The notes under the pieces were generated by a model. It made no database searches. It saw only the letters and a list, made by a program, of their open reading frames with translations, and was not told the DNA's origin. The position numbers and the translations under genes were made by a program. 64,000 nucleotides of DNA from Eledone cirrhosa (lineage: Eukaryota). The DNA lies in NCBI GenBank assembly GCA_964016885.1, contig OZ024747.1, positions 51,708,001 to 51,772,000 of the forward strand, in the 5' to 3' direction. This document shows positions 792 to 49,453 of the stretch, in pieces; within the stretch, counting starts at the first letter, position 1; the number at the start of each line of letters is the position of its first letter.

Positions 792-864
792 TGCCGAAAC
801 CCGGGATTGAATCAGGGATCTTTAGATCTTCAGTCTAACGCTCTCCCAACTGAGCTATTTCGGT
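792..864 (-). tRNA. tRNA-Phe(GAA), probably a pseudogene
   Basis: Reverse complement is ACCGAAATAGCTCAGTTGGGAGAGCGTTAGACTGAAGATCTAAAGATCCCTGATTCAATCCCGGGTTTCGGCA, 73 nt, nearly identical to metazoan tRNA-Phe. It has A1:C72 and A53:C61 mismatches (damaged B box GATTCAATC). A T4 run lies about 20 nt downstream. Confidence 0.85.
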
Positions 865-1919: not shown

Positions 1920-2103
1920 TGCGTACGTACCACATATGCTCACATGTATATATGTAGATGTATGTATATTTATATATATATATGAATGTGTGTATATATA
2001 TATATACATATATATATATACAACACACATTCATATATATATATAAATATACATACATCTACATATATACATGTGAGCATATGTGAGTACGTACACACAC
2101 ACG

Positions 2104-2203
<100 letters not shown>

Positions 2204-2591
2204 GATATAGATATATATATATAGATATATATACATATGAATAAATGTGTAAGGTGGTAGAAATAATGCCTTTAAAAGAGTCTAATAGGATTGATGGCTG
2301 CCTCATATCTTTTGTTTACCGGGATGGTATCCCTGGGGGCGACTGTCCAGAAATAATGCAATGGTGATAAAAGAAAAATATAAACACAAACACAAATGAA
2401 ATTAGAGAAAATATATATATACTTGATGTCTGGTGTCAAGTGTCAGGATCTTTGATGCAGGAACAAAAATGACCAAATAAGGTGTTTCCTTCCTCCTTCC
2501 ATTTTGTGTAGGGAAACACCTTACACTTCCCACCTTTATCTTTATTTCTTCTCTATCTATCTCCATATATACCTATATTTACTCACACGTA

Positions 2592-2810
<219 letters not shown>

Positions 2811-2860
2811 TGTGTGCTCTGAAATAGCGATATATATATATATGAATGTATATATAGTGG

Positions 2861-3407
<547 letters not shown>

Positions 3408-18790: not shown

Positions 18791-18849
<59 letters not shown>

Positions 18850-18852
<3 letters not shown>

Positions 18853-19260
18853 GAGGTTATATTTAATTTGTTGGGATACAACAAGCAAAATATTTTTATA
18901 ACTGATATAAAGCACTCAACAAATTATTGGAGTAAAAATACAATATATTAACAAATGGAAACTATATTTATAAAACCATATTTATTTCATTATACATATT
19001 TCAAGGGCCACCAGAGCAAACTATGGTGTGCTTTCATCAGATAAAATATAATATAGGTTAGTTTTATAAATATCCAGGAGATTCCAACCAGAATGGTTGC
19101 ATTTTTTAAGGGTATGTCAATATTTATTTATAAAACTAACCTATATTATATTTTATCTGATGAAAGCGCACCATAGTTTGCTCTGGTGGCCCTTGAAATA
19201 TGTATAATGAAATAAATATGGCTTTATAAATATAGTTTCCATTTGTTAATATATTGTATA
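18850..19260 (-). mobile_element. Tail plus hairpin element with hammerheads at 18983-19048 (-) and 19149-19214 (+)
   Basis: 18938-19068 is inverted at about 19127-19260. TATTTTAT-CTGATGA-AAGCGCACCA...TGGTGGCCCTT-GAAA-TATGTA-TA-ATGAAATA. (TA)n on both sides. Confidence 0.88.
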
Positions 19261-19302
19261 TATATATATATATATATGTTTACGCACACACACACACACA
19301 CA

Positions 19303-28471: not shown

Positions 28472-28910
28472 TTTTTTTTGTTTTTTTTTTACGGCAGGCG
28501 CCTGAGGATTACCCTCAGTAGCTCTAGACTGGCGTGGTGTGGGAGACCCACGAGTTCATCCATGCTGGAGCCGAGTTGGTGGTGATAACTATCCACTCAT
28601 TGTCTATGCGCATTGTTTGAGCATGATTGACATTTGATATCGGTTTGGTGTTTGTGTGGATCTTCCCCTGGCATAGGTGGCATTGGAGATTTTGATCACT
28701 TGCTGGCGATATAAGCGTTGGTACGACGGCTGTTCCCCGGCAGACGAAGCTTTGATGACACTTCTGTTGAACTCGAGTCAAGCCGCTACATTCCCTGTGG
28801 AAATCGCGTCGGCAGGTTGTGCAGATGAATAGTGCGAAGTCAATGCGAATCGTCTTGGCACACTCTAATCTGATGGGTCCGGGGTTGATCTCGATGTCGC
28901 CCGCCAGGAT
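28472..28910 (-). mobile_element. Non-LTR retrotransposon fragment: 2A-like StopGo motif, two PHD-like fingers, A-rich tail
   Basis: 28910-28875 encodes ILAGDIEINPGP, continuing in frame to ECAKTIRIDFALFICTTCRRDFHRECSGL...FVC, then CHLCQGKIH (frameshift) IKCQSCSNNAH. The minus strand ends GCCTGCCGT(A)n. Confidence 0.8.
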
Positions 28911-28911
28911 A

Positions 28912-30863
28912 TTGTTACAGTAGTTGCTGTTACAGTAGTTGATGTTACAACAGTTGCTGTTACAGTAGTTGATGTTACAACAGTTGCTCTTACAGTAGCT
29001 GATGTTACAACAGTTGCTGTTACAATAGTTGATGTTACAGTAGTTGATGTTAAAATAGTTGCTGTTACAGTAGTTGATGTTACAGTAGTTGATGTTACAA
29101 TAGTTGCTGTTACAATAGTTGATGTTATAAGAGTTGCTGTTACAATAATTGATGTTACAGTAGTTGATGTTACAACACTTGCTGTTACAGTAGCTGATGT
29201 TACAACAGTTGCTGTTACAATAGTTGATGTTACAACAGTTGTTGTTACAATGGTTGATGTTACAGAAGTTGATGTTACAACAGTTGCTGTTACAGTAGTT
29301 GCTCTTACAGTAATGCTGTTACAATAGTTGCTGTTACAATAGTTGCTGTTACAGTAGTTGATGTTACAATAGTTGGTGTTACAGTAGTTGGTGTTACAAT
29401 AGTTGCTGTTACAATAGTTGCTATTACAGTAGTTTCTGTTACAGTAGATACTGTTACAGTAGTTGATGTTACACTAGTTGTTGTTACAGTAGTTGATGTT
29501 ACAGTAGTTGATGTTACAGTAATTGATGTTACAGTAGTTGCTGTTACATTAGTTGATGTTACAGTAGTTGCTGTTACAGTAGTTGATGTTACAGTAGTTG
29601 ATGTTACAGTAGTTGATGTTACAGTAGTTGCTGTTACAATAGTTGATGTTATAGTAGTTGATGTTACAGTAGTTGATGTTACAACAGTTGCTGTTACAGT
29701 AGTTTCTGTTACAATAGTTGATGTTACAGTAGTTGCTGTTACAATAGTTTCTGTTACAATAGTTGCTGTTACAACAGTTGCTGTTACATTAGTTGATGTT
29801 ACAATAGGTGATGTTACAGTGGTTGATGTTACAGTAGTTGCTGTTACAGTAGTTGATGTTACAGTAGTTGCTGTTACAACAGTTGCTGTTACAGTAGTTG
29901 ATGTTACAGTAGTTGATGTTACAGTAGTTGATGTTACAGTAGTTGATGTTACAGTAGTTGATGTTACAACAGTTGCTGTTGCAGTAGTTTCTGTTACAGT
30001 AGTTGTTGTGACAGTAGTTGATGTTACAGTAGTTGCTGTTACAACAGGTGCTGTTACAGTAGTTGATGTTACAATAGTTGATGTTACAGTAGTTGATGTT
30101 ACAGTAGTTGTTGTTGCAGTAGTTGATGTTACAATAGTTGCTGTTACAGTAGTTGCTGTTACAATAGTTGCTGTTACAGTTGTTGATGTTACAGTAGTTG
30201 CTGTTACAGTAGTTGATGTTACAATAGTTGCTGTTACAATAGTTGCTGTTACAATAGTTGATGTTACAGTAGTTGATGTTACAGTAGTTGCTGTTACAGT
30301 AGTTGCTGTTACAACAGTTGCTGTTACAGTAGTTGATTATACAGTAGTTGATGTTACAGTAGTTTCTGTTACAATAGTTAATGTTACAGTAGTTGATGTT
30401 ACAGTAGTTGATGTTACAGTAGTTTATGTTACAGTAGTTGATGTTACAACAGTTGCTGTTGCAGTAGTTTCTGTTACAGTAGTTGTTGTGACAGTAGTTG
30501 ATGTTACAATAATTGATGTTACAACAGTTGATGTTACACTAGTTGATGTTACAGTAGTTGATGTTACAGTAACTGATGTTAAAACAGTCGCTGTTACAAT
30601 AGTTGCTGTGACAGTAGTTGATGTTACAATAGTTGATGTTACAATAATTGATGTTACAACAGTTGATGTTACAATAGTTGATGTTACAGTAGTTGATGTT
30701 ACAACAGTCGCTGTTACAGTAGTTGCTGTGACAGTAGTTGATATTACAATAGTTGATGTTACAAAAATTGATGTTACAACAGTTGATGTTACAATAGTTG
30801 ATGTTACAGTAGTTGATGTTACAGTAGCTGATGTTAAAACAGTCGCTGTTACAATAGTTGCTG
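28912..30863. repeat. 15-bp minisatellite (GTTACAGTAGTTGAT / GTTACAATAGTTGCT)
   Basis: About 130 units by length. Confidence 0.95.
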
Positions 30864-31025
30864 CAGATATTGGTAGAAAGTCAGATACCATGCTTTGCAG
30901 TACAGAGTTATGGCCCTTCCGCCGATGTTAACTTTGCCTTTCATCCTTACGGGGTCAATAAAATAAAGTACCAGTAATACATTGAGGTATTTGCAGGCCT
31001 TGTGCCAAAAGTAGAAACAATTATT
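30864..31025 (+). mobile_element. Degenerate SINE between two satellites
   Basis: Family consensus match with an internal deletion. Confidence 0.8.
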
Positions 31026-31089
31026 ACAGTAGTAGTTGTTGCATGTTGATTACAGGACTTGTTGATGTTGCAGTAGTTGTTTTTGTTGA

Positions 31090-34000
31090 TGTTAAATCAG
31101 CTGTTGTTGTTATAGTTGTAGATGTTGTTGTTGTTATAGTTGTAGATGTCGTTGTTGTTGTTGATATAGTTGTAGATGTTGTTGTTGTTGTTGTTGTTAT
31201 AGTTGTAGTTGTTGTTGTTATAGTTGTAGATGTCGTTGTTGTTGTTATAGTTGTAGATGTTGTTGTTGTTGTTATAGTTGTAGATGTCGTTGTTGTTGTT
31301 ATAGTTGTAGTTGTTGTTGTTGTTGTTATAGTTATAGTTGTTGTTGTAGTTATAGTTATAGTTGTTGTTGTTGTTATAGTTGTATATGTTGTTATTGATG
31401 TTATAGTTGTAGTTGTTGTTGTTATAGTTGTAGTTGTGGTTGTTGTTGTTATAGTTGTAGATGTTGTTGTTGTTGTTATAGTTGTTGTTGTTGTTGTTAT
31501 AGTTGTAGATGTTGTTGTTGTTGTTATAGTTGTAGTTGTTGTTATAGTTGTAGTTGTTGTTGTTGTTGTACTTGTAGATGTTGTTGTTGTTGTTGTTATA
31601 GTTGTAGATGTTGTTGTTGATGTTATAGTTGTTGTTGTTGTTATAGTTGTAGTTGTTGTTGTTGTTATAGTTATAGATGTTGTTGTTGTTGTTATAGTTG
31701 TAGATGTTGTTATTGTTGTTGTTATAGTTGTAGTTGGTGTTGTTGTTATAGTTGTAGTTGTTGTTGTTATAGTTGTAGATGTTGTTGTTGTTATAGTTGT
31801 AGATGTTGTTGTTGTTATAGTAGTAGGTGCTGTTGTTGTTGTTATAGTTGTAGATGTTGTTGTTATAGTTGTAGATGTTGTTGTTGTTGTTATAGTTGTA
31901 GCTGTTGTTGTTGTTGTTATAGTTGTAGTTGTTGTTGTTGTTGTTGTTGTTATAGTTGTAGATGTTGTTGTTGTTATAGTGGTAGATGTTGTTGTTGTTA
32001 TAGTTGTAGGTGTTGTTGTTGTTGTTATAGTTGTAGTTGTTGTTGTTGTTGTTGTTATAGTTGTAGTTGTTGTTGTTGTTATAGTTGTAGTTGTTGTTGT
32101 TGTTGTTGTTATAGTTGTAGTTGTTGTCGTTGTTATAGTTGTAGATGTTGTTGTTGTTGTTATTGTTGTAGATGTTGTTGTTGGTATAGTTGTAGTTGTT
32201 GTTGTTGTTGTTATAGTTGTAGATGTTGTTGTTATAGTTGTAGATGTTGTTGTTGTTGTTGTTGTAGTTGTTGTTGTTGTTATAGTTGTAGATGTCGTTG
32301 TTATAGTTGTAGATGTTGTTGATGTTATAGTTGTAGATGTTGTTGTTGTTGTTATTGTTGTAGATGTTGTTGTTGTTGTTATAATTCTAGTTGTTGTTGT
32401 TGTTGTTATAGTTGTAGATGTTATTGTAGTTGTTGTTGTTGTTGTTGTTATAGTTGTAGATGTCGTTGTTGTTGTTATAGTTGTAGATGCTGTTGTTGTT
32501 ATAGTTGTAGTTGTTGTTATTATAGTTGTAGTTGTTGTTGTTGTTATAGTTGTAGATGTTGTTGTTGTTATAGTTGTAGATGTTGTTGTTGTTATAGTTG
32601 TAGATGTTGTTGTTGTTGTTATAGTTGTAGATGTTGTTGTTGTTGTTGTTATAGTTGTAAGTGTTGTTGTTGTTGTTATAGTTGTAGATGTTGTTGTTGT
32701 TATAGTTGTAGTTGTTGTTGTTGTTGTTATAGTTGGAGTTGCTGTTGTTGTTGTTATAGTTATAGTTGTTGTTGTTGTTGTGTTATAGTTGTAGATGTTG
32801 TTGTTGTTATAGTTGTTGTTGTTGTTGTTGTTGTTATAGTTGTAGATGTTGTTGTTGTTGTTATAGTTGTAGATGTTGTTGTTGTTGTTATAGTTGTAGT
32901 TGTTGTTGTTGTTGTTATAGTTGTAGATGTTGTTGTTGTTATAGTTGTAGTTGTTGTTGTTGTTGTTATAGTTGTAGATGTTGTTGTTGTTGTTATAGTT
33001 GTAGTTGTTGTTGTTGTGTTATAGTTGTAGATGTTGTTGTTGTTGTTATAGTTGTAGATGTTGTTGTTATAGTTGTAGATGTTGTTGTTGTTGTTATAGT
33101 TGTAGTTGTTGTTGTTGTTATAGTTGTAGATGGTGTTGTTGTTGTTATAGTTGTAGTTGTTGTTGTTATAGTTGTAGATGTTGTTGTTGTTGTTATAGTT
33201 GCAGATGTTGTTGTTGTTGTTATAGTTGTAGGTGTTGTTGTTGTTGTTATAGTTGTAGATGTTGTTGTTGTGTTATAGTTGTAGATGTTGTTGTTGTTGT
33301 TATAGTTGTAGATGTCGTTGTTGTTGTTATAGTTGTAGATGTTATTGTAGTTGTTGTTGTTGTGTTATAGTTGTAGATGTTGTTGTTGTTGTTATAGTTG
33401 TAGATGTTGTTGTTGTTGTTATATTTGTAGATGTTGTTGTTGATGTTATAGTTGTAGATGGTGTTGCTGTTGTTATAGTTGTAGATGTTGTTGTTGATGT
33501 TATAGTTGTAGATGTTGTTGTTGATGTTATAGTTGTAGATGTTGTTGTTGTTGTTGTTGTTGTTATAGTTGTAGATGTTGTTGTTGTTGTTATAGTTGTA
33601 GATGTTGTTGTTGTTGTTATAGTTGTAGTTGTTGTTGTTGTTATAGTTGTAGATGTTGTTGTTGTTGTTATAGTTGTAGATTTTGTTGTTGTTGTTATAG
33701 TTGTAGTTGTTGTTGTTGTTATAGTTGTAGATGTTGTTGTTGTTGTTATAGTTGTAGATGTTGTTGTTGTTGTTATAGTTGTAGTTGTTGTTGTTGTTAT
33801 AGTTGTAGATGTTGTTGTTGTTGTTATAGTTGTAGATTTTGTTGTTGTTGTTATAGTTGTAGTTGTTGTTGTTGTTATAGTTGTAGATGTTGTTGTTGTT
33901 GTTATAGTTGTAGATGTTGTTGTTGATGTTATAGTTGTAGTTGTTGTTGTTGTTATAGTTGTAGATGTTGTTGTTGTTGTTATAATTGTAGATGTTGTTG

Positions 34001-34235
34001 TTGTTGTTATAGTTGTAGATGTTGTTGTTGATGTTATAGTTGTAGATGTTGTTGTTGATGTTATAGTTGTAGATGTTGTTGTTGTTGTTGTTGTTATAGT
34101 TGTAGATGTTGTTGTTGTTGTTATAGTTGTAGATGTTGTTGTTGTTGTTATAGTTGTAGTTGTTGTTGTTGTTATAGTTGTAGATGTTGTTGTTGTTGTT
34201 ATAGTTGTAGATGTTGTTGTTGATGTTATAGTCGT
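31090..34235. repeat. Variable-length minisatellite ATAGTTGTAGAT(GTT)n
   Basis: Direct inspection. Confidence 0.95.
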
Positions 34236-34802
34236 TGTGTTGACGTTTTGGCTATTGTATTGTTTTAGACTTTCTTGTCATTTTTTGAAAAGTGCCAAAG
34301 CAAACGATTTATAATATTTGGTCTCATACAGTCTAAGTTGTCGTTCAGATATATGTATCACCTCATGTTTCTGTGTCCGTGTTCTCGCTTCTGTGTTCCC
34401 CAGCATAACTGCTGTTAAAAACCCTCGTCTGCCATAACATTCACTTAGTTATTTGTCAATTAGTAACAGATAAATGATGTTCTCTTGTCGCTTTACTTGA
34501 CTACAGCCCTTCAAAACAACTTAGTCTTCCTCAACATCCAAAACATAAACATACACATACCGACCATAATTAAATATGGAATGATACGCGATGAGGCCCC
34601 TCCACAGCCCCGGCGGTCAGAATGGAGAAGGCGTTTCCTCGGAGGATGGCAAGGGAGACGCGCTGGAAAAGCCACTCCAACTGGCGGGGCTCACACCTAT
34701 GTTGTAAAATGGCTGCAGTCTGATAACTAATATCAATAAACAGAAACACCTATATACCTGAATGCATGCCTATATAAACATATGATTCCCAAATGTGTAT
34801 AT

Positions 34803-36450: not shown

Positions 36451-37396
36451 AGCACGTGTATATTTAAGTAAATACGTGTGTATTTACTTAGGTATAAGTG
36501 TAAAACTATGATCTAGCTATTCCAGTATCTCCAAGTTCCTCATTAGTTTTCCATTAACATTCTCTTTCTCCTTTGTTACATATGTCATATTTACGTCTGA
36601 CGAACGACTAAATCCCCTTGTATTGCCCAGTTATTTTATAATAATTCTCACTGGTATATTTATGTTATATTTGCATATATGTCCACTTATCAGCGTCCAT
36701 CCAACATTGTTCGTTCCTATGACTTATGACTGTGTATATTACAATTTCATACGGTTGGTAATTGTCATTATGTATGATTTTCATTGTTTATGCCTACTAT
36801 AAAATGCTTTACATGTACGTGTTAATTTCTAAACCTTCCAACCCTTAGAAAGGTAGAAACGACATGTCATTTTGAAGTTGTGATTCAATTAAATACTACG
36901 TCCTCAGAGTCAGAACTTGTTGCACACATCACACTACATCATGCATAATAGATTTAACTTATACACTGACACATAGACACACAGACACGCACACAGTCAG
37001 GCACACAGACACTCTCATTCATTCACACACATACGCACCCACACACACATGCACCTATTCTCCACTCTTAACTTTTTCACATCTTAGTGTCCTTCTTTGT
37101 CTGTACATTGGAAACGGTCCTTATTCTCTTCCGTTTTACTATTTCTCTCCTTTCTATATTTTTCTCCTTTGACTAAGCACTTGTAACACTCTATATTTGT
37201 GTAATTTGCTTTAAGGCATAACTTGTCTCTACCTGTTTTGTTATGATCCAATGTGCACTGGAATATAACGGTATCGACATAAATATCCGAAACCGTAGTG
37301 ATTTCCAGAGGATGACTGCGGAGATGGAGCTGTCCGACATTCCGTTTTTATTCCATTGTATTTGTCCTGTGCACACCCTATTTTGAATATATATAT

Positions 37397-37862
37397 ATAG
37401 AAAGAGGATTTCACTCCAAGCATAGCGTTATACAGATATGTATAGAAATTTCGTATTTCTAAAGAAATACGGTTTAGGAAGCCGTAGCTATGCAAACACC
37501 GGGGCTAACGCTCTCTGGTGGTGTCCAGCAGAAGCAAGGGGGACAACCGTCTATGCATTTCAGGCTTGACTGGCCTTCTTCAGGACGGTCCCTCCCACCG
37601 CTTGCGACTGCTGGACTAGAAGACAGGCGAGAATATATAGTTTTCTCGTCTGTGTAAATGGAGTGATTAATCTCATTTGCATATGAAGCTGCATAAGTTG
37701 GCTCAACTTATAATAGAATAGAAATAGGATTTCGCTTCAAGCATAGCTTTATACACATATGTATTGCTTCTGTTGGACATCACCAGAGGGCGTTAGGCCC
37801 GGTGGTTGCATAGCTACGGCTTCCTAAAACCGTGTTTCTTTAGAAATATGAAATTTCTATAC
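37397..37862 (-). mobile_element. Non-coding mini-element (retrozyme-like): 47-nt direct terminal repeats, hammerhead, inverted arm
   Basis: Direct repeat 37397-37443 / 37718-37764. Inverted repeat 37440-37536 / 37765-37862. Internal HHR; (TA)n and (CA)n flanks. Confidence 0.8.
37545..37590 (-). ncRNA. Minimal type I hammerhead ribozyme (intact core)
   Basis: GACCGTC-CTGAAGA-AGGC(CAGTCAA)GCCT-GAAA-TGCA-TA-GACGGTT. Stem III is palindromic (ATGCAT); predicted cleavage between 37552 and 37551. Confidence 0.92.
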
Positions 37863-38146
37863 ACACACACACATATATATACATATATATATAATGGCTG
37901 TTTTCAAATATTGAGAGAGTAAGGAAATATTGGGAAATTCTAACGTGAGATATAGTTAGTTAAATATTGATGAGATATAGTTAGTTAAGTATTAAACATA
38001 GTTTTTTTTTTAGTTAGAAAAATAAAATAAAATGAAACAAAAGAGAAGAAATGGGAATGGAAGAAAAGGTATGGAATTAGCTGGACGGTATATCACTAAA
38101 GATTTGCTGTGGAAAAGAATCCTTCCTCAGATGTGAGGCTTATATA

Positions 38147-38252
<106 letters not shown>

Positions 38253-38330
38253 TGTATGTGTGAGTATATATATATATATATATATATTATTCAAAATATT
38301 AACAAACGAATATATTCACATAATCAAAAT

Positions 38331-38403
38331 ATATGCTTTATTATATATATTTCGAAGGTACTGTGTTGTTGTTTTTTCAGTACGTCCTCGTCAGATAAAA
38401 TAT
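38331..38403 (-). ncRNA. PLE hammerhead, inverted-arm copy
   Basis: TTTAT-CTGACGA-GGACGTACTG...CAGTACCTTC-GAAA-TATATA-TA-ATAAA. Confidence 0.85.
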
Positions 38404-39620
38404 ATGATTTGATATATGACATACCTCTCTACGGTCTTGATATTTCAATTCCAGCACTGGCAGTGATTTATTTCATCAAATCTCAACATTTATATACCAC
38501 AAATAATAATATGATAAACTTAAAGAAGAAAAGGACGTGGAGCGAATTAGAGATATAAGAGAGGGTGTAAAGAAGAGGCGATGCAAGAAAATAATAACAA
38601 AAATAAAAAAATAAAAAAATACATATATAAATATTTAAATGAATAAATAGATGGGTGAATAGAGGAAGAAATATATATAAAAAAGAAGAAAATATTTATT
38701 GAATTAAAAGTTTATATAATATAATTTAACTCATTATAGATTTTAATTTCTGGTTTAGGTAATATATTTCATAAGTATTTTGTTACAACTTTTAAAAAAA
38801 TGTATATTTAAAGTATATTTAAATAATTATTAAACATGTATTAAAATATATATTAAAATACATGCATATATCCCCTTTATAAAATCGTTTCAAATCTTTA
38901 ATTATCATATAATTACAGGATTAAATTTTAGTTATATTTACTCACAAAAGTTTTATTTCGTTAATTTATATTTACTTCAGTAATTACAAATTATTACAAT
39001 TTCTTTTTAAAGAAATTCTTATATTATTCAACTATATAATTTATCTCAAAAATTAAAATAGCAAGCTATTCAAACAGAATAAAAATATTTACGAAGAATG
39101 TAAACAAAAGGAAGATAACTCATTCACTATATGTGAGCTTTAAACAATATATCTACTCTGAAATCTAGTGATATTTCTAAACCATAAATCAACAATTGTC
39201 AAGTTAAATATTGAACTGTCCTGATCAAAGCATAGGATACAGAGACTCATAATGAAATTATTATACTAGATAAAACATCAATACATTATTACTCCAGTAA
39301 GGCATAAATTATAAATATATTTATAAATTTATTAATTGTCAATATTTTTTCGAAACTTGTACAATGCTTGGAATGTTTTACCGGTTCTATGTTGGCAGCT
39401 GCTAAATAATTCATTCTTCTTGTTAAGTAAATTGTCATAATTTGTAATTATCAATAGATAATTGAATAATATTAAAACTCCAGGAAAATTTTCTTGTTGT
39501 GTGCTTTCAATCTATTGTAAAACTGTATTCATTGAGTAATCAATGAACCATATTAATCTTTGGTCATGTTTAGCTCCCTGGAGGTTCAGCGCCTCTTCTG
39601 CAATAGATTACTAATAAGTG

Positions 39621-41975
39621 ATGGAGTTCTTTAGGATTTCTTCATCTCTCAAAAATATACCTTTACCATCTAACGAAGAATATATGAAAAAACTTATTGC
39701 ACAAACCAACTCCTTCATAAGAAGACTGCGGTGGCGTGCTTTCCACTTTGAAAATAAAGAGAAAACGGATAAGAAAAACACCAACCACAATTTCGAACAT
39801 ATTTTTAAATCTAGAAAAAATCCTCCTTACAACAAACTCTTGGCTAATTTCGAAAACGAAATTATAAATATATTAAGGAATATAACATTTAAAATAAAAA
39901 CATATAGAGGCCAAGAATACCTTAGAGGTCTAAAGGAAAAAATTAATGACATACCGAAAGTAAACAAAATATTAGTGAAATCAGAGAAAACAAACAACCT
40001 ATATGGGATTGAAAGAACAAAATATAACGACTTAAATTTTAAAGAATTGAGAAAAAATTACAAAAAGGCCCCAAGTGAAGATTTATTGGATATTAATAAT
40101 GATGCATTTGATATTATCACTAATCTCGGAATAGAGCGGAAAACCAAACCCTTCATACCAAAGCAACCACGTATGAATTTTAAAGACCATAAAAGTAATT
40201 TTGAAGAAGTCTTACCTGTTAGACTTATTGTACCTTCGAAATCAGATCTTGGAATAATTAGTAAAAACATTATAGATAGGATTTTACCAACGCTTAAATT
40301 TAGGTCAAGGCTAAACCTATGGAAGGGCACTAATGAAGTCATAGATTGGTTTAATAATATCGAAAATAAAAAAAACCATAAGTTCATTCAAATGGACATA
40401 GCGAGTTATTATTCCTCAATAACTCCTAACCAACTAAATAAGGCGCTATCATATGCATATAAGTACACGGATCTATCTAGTGATGAGATAAATATTATTT
40501 TAACTGCAAGGCGAACATTGATAGAATTTAATAATCATCTTTGGACTAGATCCGATAGGCAGTGGACTAGATCCGATAGGTAGAAGAACTTTGACATTAC
40601 TATGGGCTCGTCTGATTCGGCGCAAGTTACCGATCTTGTAGGAATTTTCATCCTTAACATGATAAATAGAAAACTGCCGGAGATTACTGGTGGTTTATAT
40701 AGAGACGACATATTATTTATTGTAGAAAAACATAATAATAGCGAATTAAATAGAGTAAAGAAAGTAATTATAGAATTTTTTAAAAATTATGACATGAAAT
40801 TAGAAGTAGAAAATAACAATAAAATAGTTAATTTTTTGGACGTAACTTTTAATTTGAACTCAGGCCTTTATTACCCTTTCCATAAACTCAATTAGAACTT
40901 AAATTATGTTAGTTTTTATTCTAATCATCCTAAAAGTGTTAAGAATGCAATAGTCAACAGTGTACAACAACGATTATCCAGACTACCTGCTAATAGATCC
41001 ATATTTAATAGTAAAGCCGTATATTATAATGATGCTTTACGTAAAGCTGGTTATAAAAATAATATTGAGTATATAGAAAAAATACTGAAAATAGTATTAA
41101 GTATAATCACAGTATTCATATAATAATAATAATAATAATAAAATTGACTATAAAAACAACAACTTGAGGAATAAATCGAGGAAAAAAATAAGAACTAGAT
41201 CTATAATTTGGTCTGCTCCGCCAGCATCTTTAGCTATTAAAACACCTTTAGCACACTTATTTGTTAAAGTCTTGGATAAATGCTTCCCTAGATCACATAA
41301 ATATTACTCTATCTTCAATAGATAACACAGTTAAACTCTCTTATTCAACAACTATGTATATTGCTCAAAATATAGCAAAAAATAAATAGTAAAAATCTTA
41401 ATTTGAACCAACATATAAATAGCGATAATAACAATAATAATAATACATTATTTAATGGGAATAATAATAATAATAACTTAAATACGAATAATAGTAGAAC
41501 ACCTTTAGATAATAATAATAATAATAATAATAATATGAATAGTTTAGGATATAGAAATAACATCGAGAAGAAATGTAACTGTAGAAGGAAGTCAGAATGT
41601 CCCTTACAAAATAACTGCCTTGACAAGAATCTAATATATAAATGCACCATTAAGACAAATAATAATATATATAACTACATTGGTGCCACTTCATCTCGGT
41701 TTAAGGTTCGTTGGTACAATCATAAATATTTCTTTTCGAAACCAGACAATAAATCTTCAACTTCACTCTGACAATTAATATGGTCTTTGAAGGACAAGAA
41801 TATTAAATACTTCACACGGTTAAAGTTTGCCAATTCCTATCAAAACGCATCCATTTCGCCAAATTGCAATCTTTGCAATCTCGAAACTCTATAGATAATT
41901 ACAAATTATGACAATTTAATTAACAAGAAGAATGAATTATTTAGCAGCTGCCAACATAGAACCGGTAAAACATTT
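39621..41975 (+). pseudogene. PLE reverse transcriptase / GIY-YIG endonuclease ORF, disrupted
   Basis: RT motifs FIQMDIASYYSSI, FDITMGSSDSAQVTDLVG, GLYRDD, NFLDVTFNL. Endonuclease CNCRRKSECPLQNNCL..LIY...YIGATSSRFKVRWYNHK...CNLC...LINKKNELFSSCQH. Stops at 40581, 40893 and 41769, plus frameshifts. Confidence 0.93.
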
Positions 41976-43095
41976 CAAGCATTGTACAAGTTTCGAAAGA
42001 ATATTGACAATTAATAATTTTATAAATATATTTATAATTTTTGCCTTACTGGAGTAATAATGTATTGATGTTTTATCTAGTATAATAATTTCATTATGAG
42101 TCTCTGTATCCTACGTTTTGATCAGGACAGTTCAATATTTAACTTGACAATTGTTGATTTATGGTTTAGAAATATCACTAGATTTCAGAGTAGATATATT
42201 GTTTAAAGCTCACATAAATCTTCGTAAATATTTTTATTCTGTTTGAATAGCTTGCTATTTTAATTTTTGTCATAAATTATATAGTTGAATAATATAAGAA
42301 TTTTTTTAAAAGGAAACTGTAATAATTTGTAATTACTGAAGTAAATATAAATTAACGAAATAAAACTTTTGAGAGTAAATATAACTAAAATTTAATCCAG
42401 TAATTATATGATAATTAAAGATTTGAAACGATTTTATAAAGTGGATATATGCATGTGTTTTAATATATATTTTAATACATGTCTAATAATTATTTAAATA
42501 TGCTTTAACATAAATTGTTTTAAAGTTGTAACAAAATACTTATGGAATATATTACCTAAGCCATAAATTAAAATCTATAACGAGTTAAATTAAATTCTAT
42601 AAACTTTTAATTCAATAAATATGTGACTGCTTCTGAAAGGAAATGTATATTTATTAATTTTGATATATTATATAAGTTTAATTAGCTTAACCATAACCAA
42701 ATACTAGAGATATTCAATGGTTTATGGTAATTGATTGGTTGCCTCAATTGACCTATTATTTGAAAATAACGTTTTTTTTTGTACCTATCCCCTCCATAAT
42801 TTCTTTTGTCGTTATTTCTTCTTTCTTCTTTTTCTTCTTTTTTATATATATTTCTTCCTCTATTCACCCATCTATTTATTCATTTAAATTCTTTTTTATT
42901 TTTTTTTTTTTTTCTTGCATCTCCTCTTCTTTACACCCTCTCTTATATCTCTTATTCGCTCCACGTCCTTTTCTTCTTTAAGTTTATCATATTATTATTT
43001 GTGGTATATAAATGTTGAGATTTTATGAAATAAATCACTGCCAATACTGGAATTGAAATATCAAGACCGTAGAGATATGTCATATATCAAATCAT

Positions 43096-43165
43096 ATATT
43101 TTATCTGACGAGGACGAACTGAAAAAAAAACACAGTACCTTCGAAATATATATAATAAAGCATAT
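43096..43165 (+). ncRNA. PLE hammerhead, sense copy in the 3' region
   Basis: CTGACGA at 43105, GAAA at 43143, palindromic stem III ATATATAT; predicted cleavage after 43154. Confidence 0.85.
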
Positions 43166-43467
43166 ATTTTGATTATGTGAATATCTTCATTTGTTAATAT
43201 TTTGAATAATATTAAAACTCCAGGAAAATTTTTCTTTTGAGTTCTTTTAATCTATTGTAAAACTGTATTCATTGAGTAATCAATGAACCATATTAACCTT
43301 TCGGTATATATATATATATATATACATACATATATATATAGGTACATATTTACACGCATACACACATACACATTTACATGCACATACACGCTATAAACCA
43401 CACAAACATGTATATGTATGTATGTATGTATATATATATACATGTACATACAAAATTATATATATAT

Positions 43468-43823: not shown

Positions 43824-43841
43824 TATATATATATATATATA

Positions 43842-44837
43842 TAAATATAAATATATTACACAAAGAGAAGTGTGTTACACAGTGAGATGTGTGTAAAGAA
43901 TTATTACAAGTGAGTTTTACCGTTACTGTATAGAGAATAATATCTACAGGTTTAGCAAAATAAATAGAAAAAAACTAAGTCAGAGTCAAATCTCTGAAGT
44001 AGAGTTTTGAATTACCAACCTTATAACTATAAGTTTGCTGATACGAATCTAGTTCGTTTCACCACAGAAATGTGCAGTACAACAGCCCACAGGATCCTTA
44101 GTCAGCAAATGTGGATGCTGTTCACGACACATCTAACCTCATGGATAGAGAGAAAGCTAATATATACCCTGCCCAGAGTAGGGCGAAATCACGTGTTATC
44201 TGCATCAAATAACGGCTCTCATGGATTGGGGAAAATGCTAGAGAGAGCAGCCCAACCGTTCGCATTTATTAGCTCAACAATTTGGAGCTCGTTAAGTATA
44301 CGGGGATCGGAATTAAGAGTATTCCGCAGTTCACAGTAATAATAATAATATTAGCTCAAAGAGGAATAGAGAATTTTCTTCTAAGCTCAAATACAAATAT
44401 AAATATATTACACAAAGAGAAGTGTGTTACTGAGGATCCTGTGGGCTGTTGTACTGCAGATTTATGTGGTGAAACGAACTAGATTCGTATCAGCAAACTT
44501 ATAGTTATAAGGTTGGTAATTTAAAACTCTACTTCAGAGATTTGATTCTGACTTAGTTTTTTTCTATTTAATTGCTAAACCTGTAGATATTGTTCTCTAT
44601 ACAGTAACGATAAAACTCACTTGTAATAATTATTTACACACATCTCACTGTGTAACACACTTCTCTTTGTGTAATATATTTATATTTGTATTTGAGCTGA
44701 GAAGAAAATTCTCTATTCCTCTTTGAGCTAACATTTGTTAATATCGTATGTTTACTCCAAATACTTGTTGAGTGCTTTATATCAGTTATAAAAATATTTG
44801 CTTGTTGTATCCCAACAATTTAAATAGAACTTTTGCA
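43842..44837 (+). mobile_element. Compound hairpin plus tail element with hammerheads (44034-44109 minus; 44430-44498 plus, lacking the stem I 5' strand)
   Basis: 43842-44100 is inverted at 44430-44687, and 44351-44430 is inverted at 44653-44730. TTTGCTGA-CTAAGGA...GAAA-CGAA(CTAGA)TTCG-TA-TCAGCAAA. Tail 44732-44830 is homologous to the reverse complement of 18853-18957. Confidence 0.82.
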
Positions 44838-46097: not shown

Positions 46098-46281
46098 AGC
46101 TGTATCGGTAGAGGGTTGGACGCCATACTTTCCAGCATAGAGTTATGTCCCTTTACAGTCTGAGTTTAAATCCCGCCGAGGTTAACTTTACCTTTCATCA
46201 TTAAGAGGTCGATAAAATAAAGTACCTGTAATGCACTGGGATAATTGCTGGCCTTGTGCCAAAAAGTAGAAACAATTATTA
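46098..46281 (+). mobile_element. SINE
   Basis: Family consensus match. Confidence 0.88.
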
Positions 46282-46299
46282 TTCATACTAATAACTATT

Positions 46300-46364
46300 C
46301 CGATGATGATAATGGTGAGGATGAAGATGATGATGATGATAATGATGATGATGATGACGACGAC

Positions 46365-46398
<34 letters not shown>

Positions 46399-49150
46399 TG
46401 ATGATGGTGCTGGTGGCGGTAGTGATGGTTGTAATGGTGGTGTTGATGATGAGGATGATGGCGGTGGTGGCGACTGTAGTAATGGTTGTGATGGTCGTGA
46501 TTATGGTGGTGCTGGTGGTGGTGATGATGAAGATGATGATGTTGACGAGGGTGGTAGTGAAGGTGGTGATAGCACCGTTGGATGCGCTGCTGCTGCTGGA
46601 GATGGAGTTGCTGCTGCTGCTGCTGATGTTGATGATGATGATGGAGGTAATAATTATTTACGATGGTGATGCTGAGGATTGCGGTGGTATTGATGGTGGT
46701 GCTGGTGTTAATGATAACGACGACGATGATGAATTCGATGATGATGGTGGTAATGATGGTGTCTATGGTGGTATTGATGGTGGCGATGGTGGTATTGATG
46801 GTGGTGCTGGTGTTAATGATAACGACGACGATGATGAATTCGATGATGATGGTGGTAATGATGGTGTCGATGGTGGTATTGATGGTGGCGATGGTGGTAT
46901 TGAAAGTGGCGATGGTGATGGTGACGATGGTGGTAATGATGGTGGTAATGACGGTGACGATGGTGGTATTTATGGTGACGATGCTGGTAATCATGGTGGC
47001 GATGGCGGTATTGATGGTGGCGATGGTGGTATTTATGGTGACGATGGTGGTAATGATGGTGGCGATGGTGGTATTTATGGTGACGATGCTGGTAATCATG
47101 GTGGCGATGGCGGTATTGATGGTGGCGATGGTGGTATTTATGGTGACGATGGTGGTTAATGATGGTGGCGATGGTGGTATTTATGGTGACGATGCTGGTA
47201 ATCATGGTGGCGATGGCGGTATTGATGGTGGCGATGGTGGCATTTATGGTGACGATGGTGGTAATGATGGTGGCGATGGTGGTATTGATGGGGGCGATGG
47301 TGGTATTTATGGTGGCGATGGCGGTATTGATGGTGGCGATGGTGGTATTTATGGTGACGATAGTGGTAATGATGGTGGCGATGGAGGTAAATATGGTGAC
47401 GATGGTGGTAATGATGGTGGCGATGGTTGTATTGATGTTGATGATGGTGGTAATGATGGTGGCGATGGCGGTAATGATGGTGCCGATGGTGGTATTTATG
47501 GTGACGATGGTGATATTTATGGTGACGATGGTGGTATTTATGGTGACGATGGTGGTATTGATGGTGACGATGGTGGTATTGATGGTGACGATGGTGGTAT
47601 TTATGGTGACGATGGTGGGATTTATGGTGATGATGGTGGTATGGATGGTGACGATGGTGGTATTGATGGTGGCGATGGTGGTATTTATGGTGACGATGGT
47701 GATATTTATGGTGACGATGGTGGTATTTATGGTGACAATGGTGGTATTGATGGTGGCGATGGTGGTATTGATGGTGGTGATGGTGGTATTTATGGTGACG
47801 ATGGTGGTAATGATGGTGGCGATGGTGGAATTTATGGTGATGATGGTGGTATTTATGGTGATGATGGTGGTATTTATGGTGACGATGGTGGTATTGATGG
47901 TGGCGATGGTGGTATTGATGGTGGTGATGGTGGTATTTATGGTGACGATGGTGGTAATGATGGTGGCGATGGTGGTATATATGGTGGCGATGGTGGTATT
48001 TATGGTGGCGATGGTGGTATTGATGGTGGCGATGGTGGTATTGATGGTGGCGATGGTGGTATATATGGTGATGATGGTGTTATTGATGGTGACGATGGTG
48101 GTATTTATGGTGATGATGGTGGTATTTATGGTGATGATGGTGGTATTTATGGTGACGATGGTAGTATTGATGGTGGCGAAGGTGATAATGATGGTGGCGA
48201 TGGTGGTATTGATGGTGACGATGGTGGTATTTATGGTGACGATGGTGGTATTGATCGTGGCGAAGGTGATAATGATGGTGGCGATGGTGGTATTGATGGT
48301 GACGATGGTGGTATTTATGGTGGCGATGGTGGTATTGATGGTGACGATGGTGGTAATGATGGTGGCGATGGTGGTAATGATGGTGACGATGGTGGTATAT
48401 ATGTTGATGGTGGTGGTATTGATGGTGGCGATGGTGGTATTTATTGTGACGATGGTGGTAATGATGGTGGCGATGGTGGTATTGATGGTGACGATGGTGG
48501 CGATGGTGGTATTAATGGTGACGATGGTGGTATTTATGGTGACGATGGTGGTATTGATGGTGGCGATGGTGGTATTTATGGTGGTGATGGGGGTATTTAT
48601 GGTGACGATGGTGGCGATGTTGGTATTGATGGTGACGATGGTGGTATTTATGGTGGCGATGGTGGTATTGATGGTGGCGATGGTGGTAGATATGGTGACG
48701 ATGGTGGTATATATGGTGACGATGGTGGTAATAATGGTGGCGATGGTGGTATTGATGGTGACGATGGTGGTATTTATGGTGACGATGGTGGTATTGATGG
48801 TGATGATGGTGGTATTGATGGTGATGATGGTGGTATTGATGGTGATGATGGTGGTATTGATGGTGGCGATGGTGGTATTTATGGTGATGATGGTGGTATT
48901 GATGGTGATGATGGTGGTATTGATGGTGATGATGGTGGTATTTATGGTGGCGATGGTGGTATTGATGTTGGCGATGGTGGTATTGATGGTGATGATGGTG
49001 GTATATATGGTGATGATGGTGGTATTTATGGTGACGATGGTGGTAATGATGGTGGCGATGGTGGTAATGATGGTGACGATGGTGGTATATATGGTGATGA
49101 TGGTGGTATTGATGGTGGCGATGGTGGTATATATGGTGATGATGGTGATG
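46300..49150. repeat. GAT/GGT low-complexity tract grading into a 21-bp minisatellite (GATGGTGGTATTTATGGTGAC)
   Basis: Direct inspection; the regular 21-bp period starts at about 46900. Confidence 0.93.
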
Positions 49151-49242
49151 GCAATGGTAATAATATTGTTGTTACATTTGTAATGTTGATTTTCATTTCT
49201 AAGCATATTTCTGCATTTGCATTGGGGTGTGTTTATGGATGA

Positions 49243-49342
<100 letters not shown>

Positions 49343-49453
49343 TTTGTATGTGTGTGTGTTTGTATGTGTGTGTGTTTGTGTGTGTGTTTTTATGTGTATG
49401 TTTGTGCGTGTGTGTGTGAAAACATACATGTTTTCATTGATTTTCTCTCTCAA

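Follow-up and report, generated by a model that had tools for sequence, protein, structure and literature searches.

We found that positions 37397..37862 of the window (the whole 64,000-nt stretch of Eledone cirrhosa DNA that was analysed) hold an old copy of a 321-nt non-coding unit with a type I hammerhead motif, one member of a dispersed family. This family has very probably been mobilised by a PLE, and the evidence in the sequence favours, short of proof, a circular RNA as the template from which the unit was copied. The mobiliser of animal retrozymes, and the question of whether the circle is template or by-product, have so far been argued from co-occurrence and from similarity to pseudo-LTRs (pLTRs); this family has the PLE signature on the insertions themselves, together with countable footprints which favour the circle. 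The value of the data lies in these family-level footprints and not in the window locus, the layout of which is given in Table 1.

Table 1 Features of the window locus and its surroundings (positions in the window).
Feature	Position	Strand	Basis
Main arm, 1.15 turns of the 321-nt unit, 3' end at site B	37397..37764	-	94.8% identity to family consensus
5' copy of the 47-nt overlap; its 5' end is a truncation point which varies among insertions	37718..37764	-	scattered 5' ends in sampled loci
3' copy of the 47-nt overlap; contains the ~41-nt "tail" from site A (~37439) to site B (~37398)	37397..37443	-	two 3'-end classes
Type I hammerhead motif; predicted cut after 37552, unit position 213	37545..37590	-	motif scan and compensatory changes
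Long hairpin extending helix I; 9-bp distal stem present in all three subfamily groups	37523..37616	-	folding, alignment
Inverted arm, unit ~228-326, 3' end at site A; its 5' end abuts that of the main arm	37765..37863	+	sequence comparison
(TA)n run beside the site B end	37387..37399	.	sequence
(CA)n(TA)n run beside the site A end	37862..37893	.	sequence
Broken Hydra-clade PLE neighbour, outside the 321-nt unit; similar inverted-arm and tail layout	38284..43305	+	motifs, sequence comparison

At the window locus there is one worn copy of the unit. Read on the minus strand, the inverted arm (37863-37765) comes first and is followed by the 368 nt of the main arm (37764-37397), which have the 47-nt overlap at both ends and run circularly permuted through unit positions 1-321 and then 1-47. 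The initial annotation had reported 47-nt repeats 321 nt apart, and these are present with 42/47 positions identical (89%), as is the GC-rich hairpin which it quoted from the body. It had also reported a 98-nt inverted copy of the 3' part; the inverted arm is real (37764/5-37863 is identical to 37440-37537 at 91/99 positions), with the correction that its length is 99 nt. Its description of a "complete" mini-element did not hold, as the window copy is an arbitrary 5' truncation with a single hammerhead and not a bounded element with terminal repeats. The 5' ends differ freely among copies, which means that the 47-nt repeat is no terminal repeat of fixed extent; it is the overlap produced by 1.15 turns. 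Since the inverted arm begins beyond the hammerhead and the locus has only one, no monomer could be released from it by double cleavage. It is probably an ordinary and inactive copy, and probably a transposition dead end.

The unit is present in many copies. A 20-mer from its 3' part gave 1,545 exact matches in the 3.0-Gb genome (control: 0), and at loci selected by other motifs 48 of 102 covered sites (~47%) matched a near-identical 20-mer exactly, from which we estimate ~3,300 sites and roughly 2,000-3,000 insertions. A DNA search of the genome gave 3,429 candidates, 40 of which were scored. For the statistics on insertion ends we used the first 100 listed 20-mer matches, all on a single contig (C1) and collapsing to 83 loci, a sample which avoids selection by length. 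The consensus unit has 321 nt and a GC content of 43%. Within the 83 loci there are two young subfamilies, and segments of at least 200 nt are 81-98% identical to the consensus, with one exception at 73%. Hammerhead patterns recovered older subfamilies at about 70-85% identity, which likewise consist of the bare unit, and relaxed hammerhead patterns returned only such older subfamilies. An exact pattern with two hammerheads had 81 matches in the genome, and two full hammerheads were found in 4 of the 83 loci, most loci being shorter. The longer insertions, of 870 nt (L146, a locus with two hammerheads) and 3,461 nt (L198), contain unit sequence only; the latter includes the only long array seen (L198:1631-4935, G000:C2:83.92 Mb), which has ~10.8 units, ends at site A and is made of units mostly 8-15% apart, with a deletion common to turns 2 and 7. 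Four nearby copies (L200-L202, G000:C6:70.48-70.50 Mb) all end at unit position 248 and are probably local duplications of one truncated insertion. The unit repeat is also abundant, and the go-back joint present, in contigs of three runs from one sample for which the kind of sequence is unrecorded. The genome-wide search for dispersed or tandem copies thus returned many copies with a constant unit of 321 nt, and the proposal of a retrozyme-like, multi-copy, non-coding unit is borne out by copy number, constant length and the lack of a long reading frame.

The hammerhead on the minus strand comprises a helix I of 7 bp, CUGAAGA, a helix II of 4 bp with a 7-nt loop, GAAA and a palindromic UGCA as helix III. 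It had been annotated as a minimal HHR. In the part of PMC4209133 which was available, the minimal hammerhead of PLEs (min-HHR) lacks helix III and has a helix II of 7-8 bp and a helix I of 4-5 bp; our motif fits the description given there of the "canonical" metazoan type I form and should be classed with it. No hammerhead was recognised by the Rfam models, whether over the whole window or locally (E ≤ 5). Among the 83 loci the core letters are retained in 90-98% of copies, the free position excepted. In 20 aligned copies 91.5% of cells were base-paired and 6 of the 22 pairs had changed on both sides, 3 of these 6 in helix II; helices I and II both have two-sided changes between subfamilies. 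As 121 of 500 shuffles reached the observed pair count, and the changes represent few independent events in three subfamily groups, we count these compensatory changes as few, but in favour of RNA-level selection on the putative ribozyme stems. The 368-nt minus strand folds with z = −7.6 against 100 shuffles and the monomer folded as a circle with z = −5.8 against 60 shuffles; the folding score was rejected as an indicator of strand, as the antisense consensus folds equally well. It should also be noted that a hammerhead-like match lies elsewhere in the window (2969-3016, minus strand, CUGAAGA at 3010, predicted cut after 2975), which may be due to chance.

With the family consensus repeated three times in tandem, the longest stop-free stretch on either strand was 77 codons, in agreement with the non-coding body which had been proposed, and no ORF with RT and GIY-YIG endonuclease was found on either strand of the 321-nt consensus unit. 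Unit positions 82-89 (window 37675-37682, minus strand) hold an octamer-like 8-mer; it is kept in 92-100% of young copies and altered in the oldest subfamily. A promoter of the snRNA type was considered for the unit and rejected, as the upstream regions of three U2 genes contained no such octamer and had nothing in common with the unit. Other parts of the window contain a tRNA-Phe(GAA) gene or pseudogene (792-864, minus strand) and long tandem arrays of short units which yield stop-free frames (28500-34300 and 46200-49400).

The ends of the insertions are those expected of a PLE. In the available sections of PMC8557442, PLEs are described as having a partial tandem, an inverted 5' copy and a tail of 30-40 nt at one end, with (TA)n as the target of the Hydra clade, and according to the parts of PMC11167929 at hand the tail corresponds to the spacing of two internal start sites, as determined in vitro for an anole PLE. 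Among 140 segments of at least 40 nt from the 83 loci, 114 had their 3' end at one of two sites ~41 nt apart, 59 at site A (~unit 5) and 55 at site B (~unit 46), and 26 ended elsewhere. The 83 loci contain 44 inverted junctions, 32 of which could be classified at both ends, and these comprise 28 A+B pairs, 3 A+A pairs and 1 B+B pair (P = 2e−5). The window copy is itself an A+B pair, its site B arm being 368 nt and its site A arm 99 nt long. A (TA)3 run adjoins 91 of the 114 ends at A or B, compared with 164 of 1,411 control windows. The 5' ends are scattered among the copies of the 83 loci, and an apparent cluster at unit 254-265 coincides with a variable C run and with the edge of the sampling motif. 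The unit therefore has the features of PLE insertion, namely two 3' ends, a partial tandem with an inverted 5'-truncated copy and a bias to (TA)n. The PLE-like architecture which had been noticed at one locus is thus the signature of a family, and we consider it very likely that a PLE has mobilised it. A further structure in the window (43839-44735) consists of nested inverted repeats with arms 92-98% complementary and flanks of TA runs, and is possibly an insertion of PLE type.

The initial annotation had suggested that the terminal redundancy arose by copying more than one turn of a circular or tandem RNA, and the permuted unit of 1.15 turns fits this. A cleaved linear monomer is ruled out as the template, since 87 of 114 segments cross the predicted cut site and the 5' ends are not concentrated at it, with 2 of 139 lying within 5 nt compared with 4.8 expected. 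Among the 30 top-scoring loci, two (L008 and L019) do have their 5' end there. Read-through of this site would not in itself call for a circle, because the anole PLE in vitro uses mainly uncleaved linear RNA and its hammerhead is dispensable (PMC11167929, in the parts available). The template to be weighed against the circle is an uncleaved linear multimer, the transcript of tandem loci; the family would be the same and equally mobilised by a PLE, with a hammerhead which processes precursors or is dispensable, and with no circle involved. Possible sources exist, in that there are the 81 exact two-hammerhead matches and one array of ~10.8 units, and coding Hydra PLEs of this genome form tandem units of 3.5 kb. 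This reading predicts either a constant stop rate or a sharp 5' stop. In 98 segments of at least 100 nt we found instead a rate of 0.0036 per nt up to 321 nt and of 0.0125 per nt beyond, a rise of ~3.5-fold after one unit (P = 9e−9), without a pile-up at the cut site. The length of its products would be limited by the source, yet two full hammerheads are found in only 4/83 loci.

We also compared rare variants between the parts of single insertions. These were common to successive turns at 40 of 7,829 sites (67 segments; motif, two-hammerhead and top-scoring sets pooled) and to inverted arms at 50 of 10,505 sites, compared with 457 of 486,864 for unrelated copies of one subfamily, the figure for successive turns being 5.5 times higher; 23 of these 40 variants come from 4 loci, one of which has three turns counted pairwise. 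Agreement at diagnostic sites was 0.90 for successive turns and 0.91 for inverted arms, compared with 0.52 for unrelated copies of the same subfamily. Variants common to successive turns could also come from a uniform tandem source or from gene conversion; the sole array seen is too diverged internally to supply them, which counts against a linear multimer, and uniform arrays may have been collapsed in the assembly. Post-insertion recombination which loses a unit could also thin the class of long copies; segment length is uncorrelated with age (rho = −0.05, n = 99), the long copies being no younger, which argues weakly against such later loss. On these observations we regard a linear multimer as unlikely, albeit far from negligible, and a circular RNA as the rather more probable template.

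The best explanation of the data, and one which we hold to be fairly probable, is that a borrowed PLE RT/endonuclease wrote the unit into (TA)n microsatellites from a circular RNA monomer. Transcripts of the few loci with two hammerheads would be cut by the dimeric ribozyme and the released monomer ligated into a circle, steps for which the accessible part of PMC7229834 provides the basis. The PLE enzyme would then nick both strands at a TA run and start two cDNAs, one from each of sites A and B. Reverse transcription would proceed along the circle and past the ligated cut site, and the enzyme would stall more often after one turn, on meeting its own product. The two cDNAs would finally be joined 5'-to-5', which in the window copy would have united the 368 nt from site B with the 99 nt from site A. 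A more specific version, possible but rather doubtful as a whole, is that the insertions record rolling-circle, target-primed reverse transcription by a Hydra-clade PLE on a 321-nt ribozyme circle, in which both strands were primed at sites 41 nt apart, the ligated cut was read through, synthesis slowed after one turn and the enzyme switched on one occasion from its own RNA onto the circle. If true, this would be direct genomic evidence on two points, the copying of animal retrozymes from a circle and the identity of the partner which mobilises them.

Candidates for this partner are present in the same genome. The motifs RWR, EKT and CxCX5C identify the neighbour of the window locus, on the strand opposite to the unit, as a broken Hydra-clade PLE, which has inverted arms 91-92% identical, a direct repeat of 100 nt and hammerheads at 43105 (plus strand) and 38394 (minus strand). 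As had been stated in the initial annotation, this neighbour has the layout of the unit without its sequence, the best match between the two being at E = 0.78. A young Hydra-clade family (L167-L196) has intact ORFs of 717 aa in copies 95-99.9% identical, arranged as tandem units of 3.5 kb which terminate in (TA)n at two 3' positions separated by 83 nt; no canonical hammerhead was found in the six of its loci which were scanned, whereas the Hydra clade is described as always carrying one. The unit had no similarity to any of three Hydra-clade families, that is, the neighbour, the young family and the one found at L020, the comparison being confined to this clade. Pfam recognised the Hydra proteins only by a weak RVT_1 match, and the sampling of PLEs is limited to the Hydra clade for this reason. 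The tails of the three families measure 83, ~90-100 and ~130-140 nt compared with 41 nt in the unit, and the tail length thus neither names nor excludes them. One chimera (L020:1207-3364, also L266, G000:C2:214.54 Mb) comprises an inverted arm with a site B end, two turns of the unit (249 to 249) and, joined directly to them, the 3'-terminal 2 kb of a Hydra PLE of similar age; TA runs lie at both outer ends, the Hydra part ends in (TA)n, and at the join there may be 2 nt of microhomology, together with one additional base. This single case is possibly a template switch, and it could also be a deletion between neighbours, since Hydra fragments lie near many loci. With this chimera as the hint, the case for a Hydra-clade PLE as the mobilising partner is evenly balanced. 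A Hydra-type PLE end is also inserted in the window (18826-19277) as a short palindrome with opposed hammerheads at 19040 (minus strand) and 19157 (plus strand); it is related to the family L247-L265.

The breadth of this comparison also bears on a second reading, in which the unit is the pLTR, or truncated 3' end, of a coding PLE absent from the Hydra-clade families retrieved. Insertions of PLEs are mostly 5'-truncated, and families of Xenopus retrozymes resemble pLTRs according to the portion of bioRxiv 10.64898/2026.07.22.740005 which was available; the comparison moreover covered Hydra-clade PLEs only. Against this, no coding sequence is attached to the unit: in copies which reach that far, position 1 is preceded by position 321 again, the insertions of up to 870 and 3,461 nt and the older subfamilies recovered by hammerhead patterns are unit sequence alone, and 31 single-segment loci have no common sequence at the 5' junction. 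On these grounds the reading of the unit as the mere truncated 3' end, or solo pLTR, of a longer coding PLE is very improbable and largely refuted, although the unit may descend from a pLTR of the distant past. A DNA-level repeat (minisatellite, MITE or Helitron-type) with an incidental hammerhead, for which the internal duplication in one tandem array (the deletion common to turns 2 and 7) could be cited, is barely credible given the fixed 3' ends, free 5' ends and A+B pairs, which are marks of target-primed reverse transcription, the stem covariation, which is a mark of RNA-level selection, and the lack of fixed terminal inverted repeats.

By its sequence features the family is a non-LTR retrozyme, and by its insertion features it is PLE-like; both the kind of element and the idea of a PLE-dependent retrozyme are already in print, the latter in the available parts of PMC7229834 and bioRxiv 10.64898/2026.07.22.740005. 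The literature searched, which was mostly open-access, held no description of this family or of end statistics for retrozymes, and an entry for the family may exist in Repbase or Dfam; in the part of PMC8967140 at hand Penelope is mentioned in cephalopods and hammerheads are not. As described in the accessible text of Cervera and de la Pena 2020 (PMC7229834), metazoan non-LTR retrozymes have units of ~170-400 nt and a GC content under 45%. Our unit resembles them in being non-coding and within 170-400 nt, in its GC content, in its canonical type I hammerhead with a short palindromic helix III, in strong predicted folding, in the occurrence of tandem copies (dimers to multimers) and in the presence of PLEs in the same genome. 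It differs from them in that its family consists mostly of dispersed insertions of less than two units, in which an inverted arm is usual. For the retrozymes of coral, mussel and axolotl both expression and circles were shown, whereas our evidence for the present family is at the level of DNA; in the same available text PLEs are named as strong candidates for mobilisation, without an analysis of insertion ends.

The retrozymes of Li, Clavereau and Pollet (bioRxiv 10.64898/2026.07.22.740005) are, in the portion available, likewise non-autonomous and PLE-dependent, with dispersed monomers and rare multimers. Their evidence consists of co-occurrence and pLTR similarity, whereas ours is an insertion signature, with no pLTR similarity found among the three Hydra-clade families. 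They report self-cleavage in 1/9 Xenopus dimers and call a locus "active" when it has two consecutive hammerhead units, in contrast to the single hammerhead of the window locus. The intact 717-aa Hydra-clade ORFs in this genome mean that the published PLE assay could address both partner and template. The likeness to coding elements is to EN+ Hydra-clade PLEs (Craig et al. 2021, PMC8557442) and the anole Poseidon PAc (Frangieh et al. 2024, PMC11167929), which in the sections available have a partial tandem, an inverted 5'-truncated copy, a tail at one end, two start sites, (TA)n or AT-rich targets and a hammerhead upstream of the start sites. Unlike these PLEs, the unit has no RT or GIY-YIG frame, its whole element is 321 nt and its 41-nt tail does not reach the length found in any of the three Hydra families which we measured.
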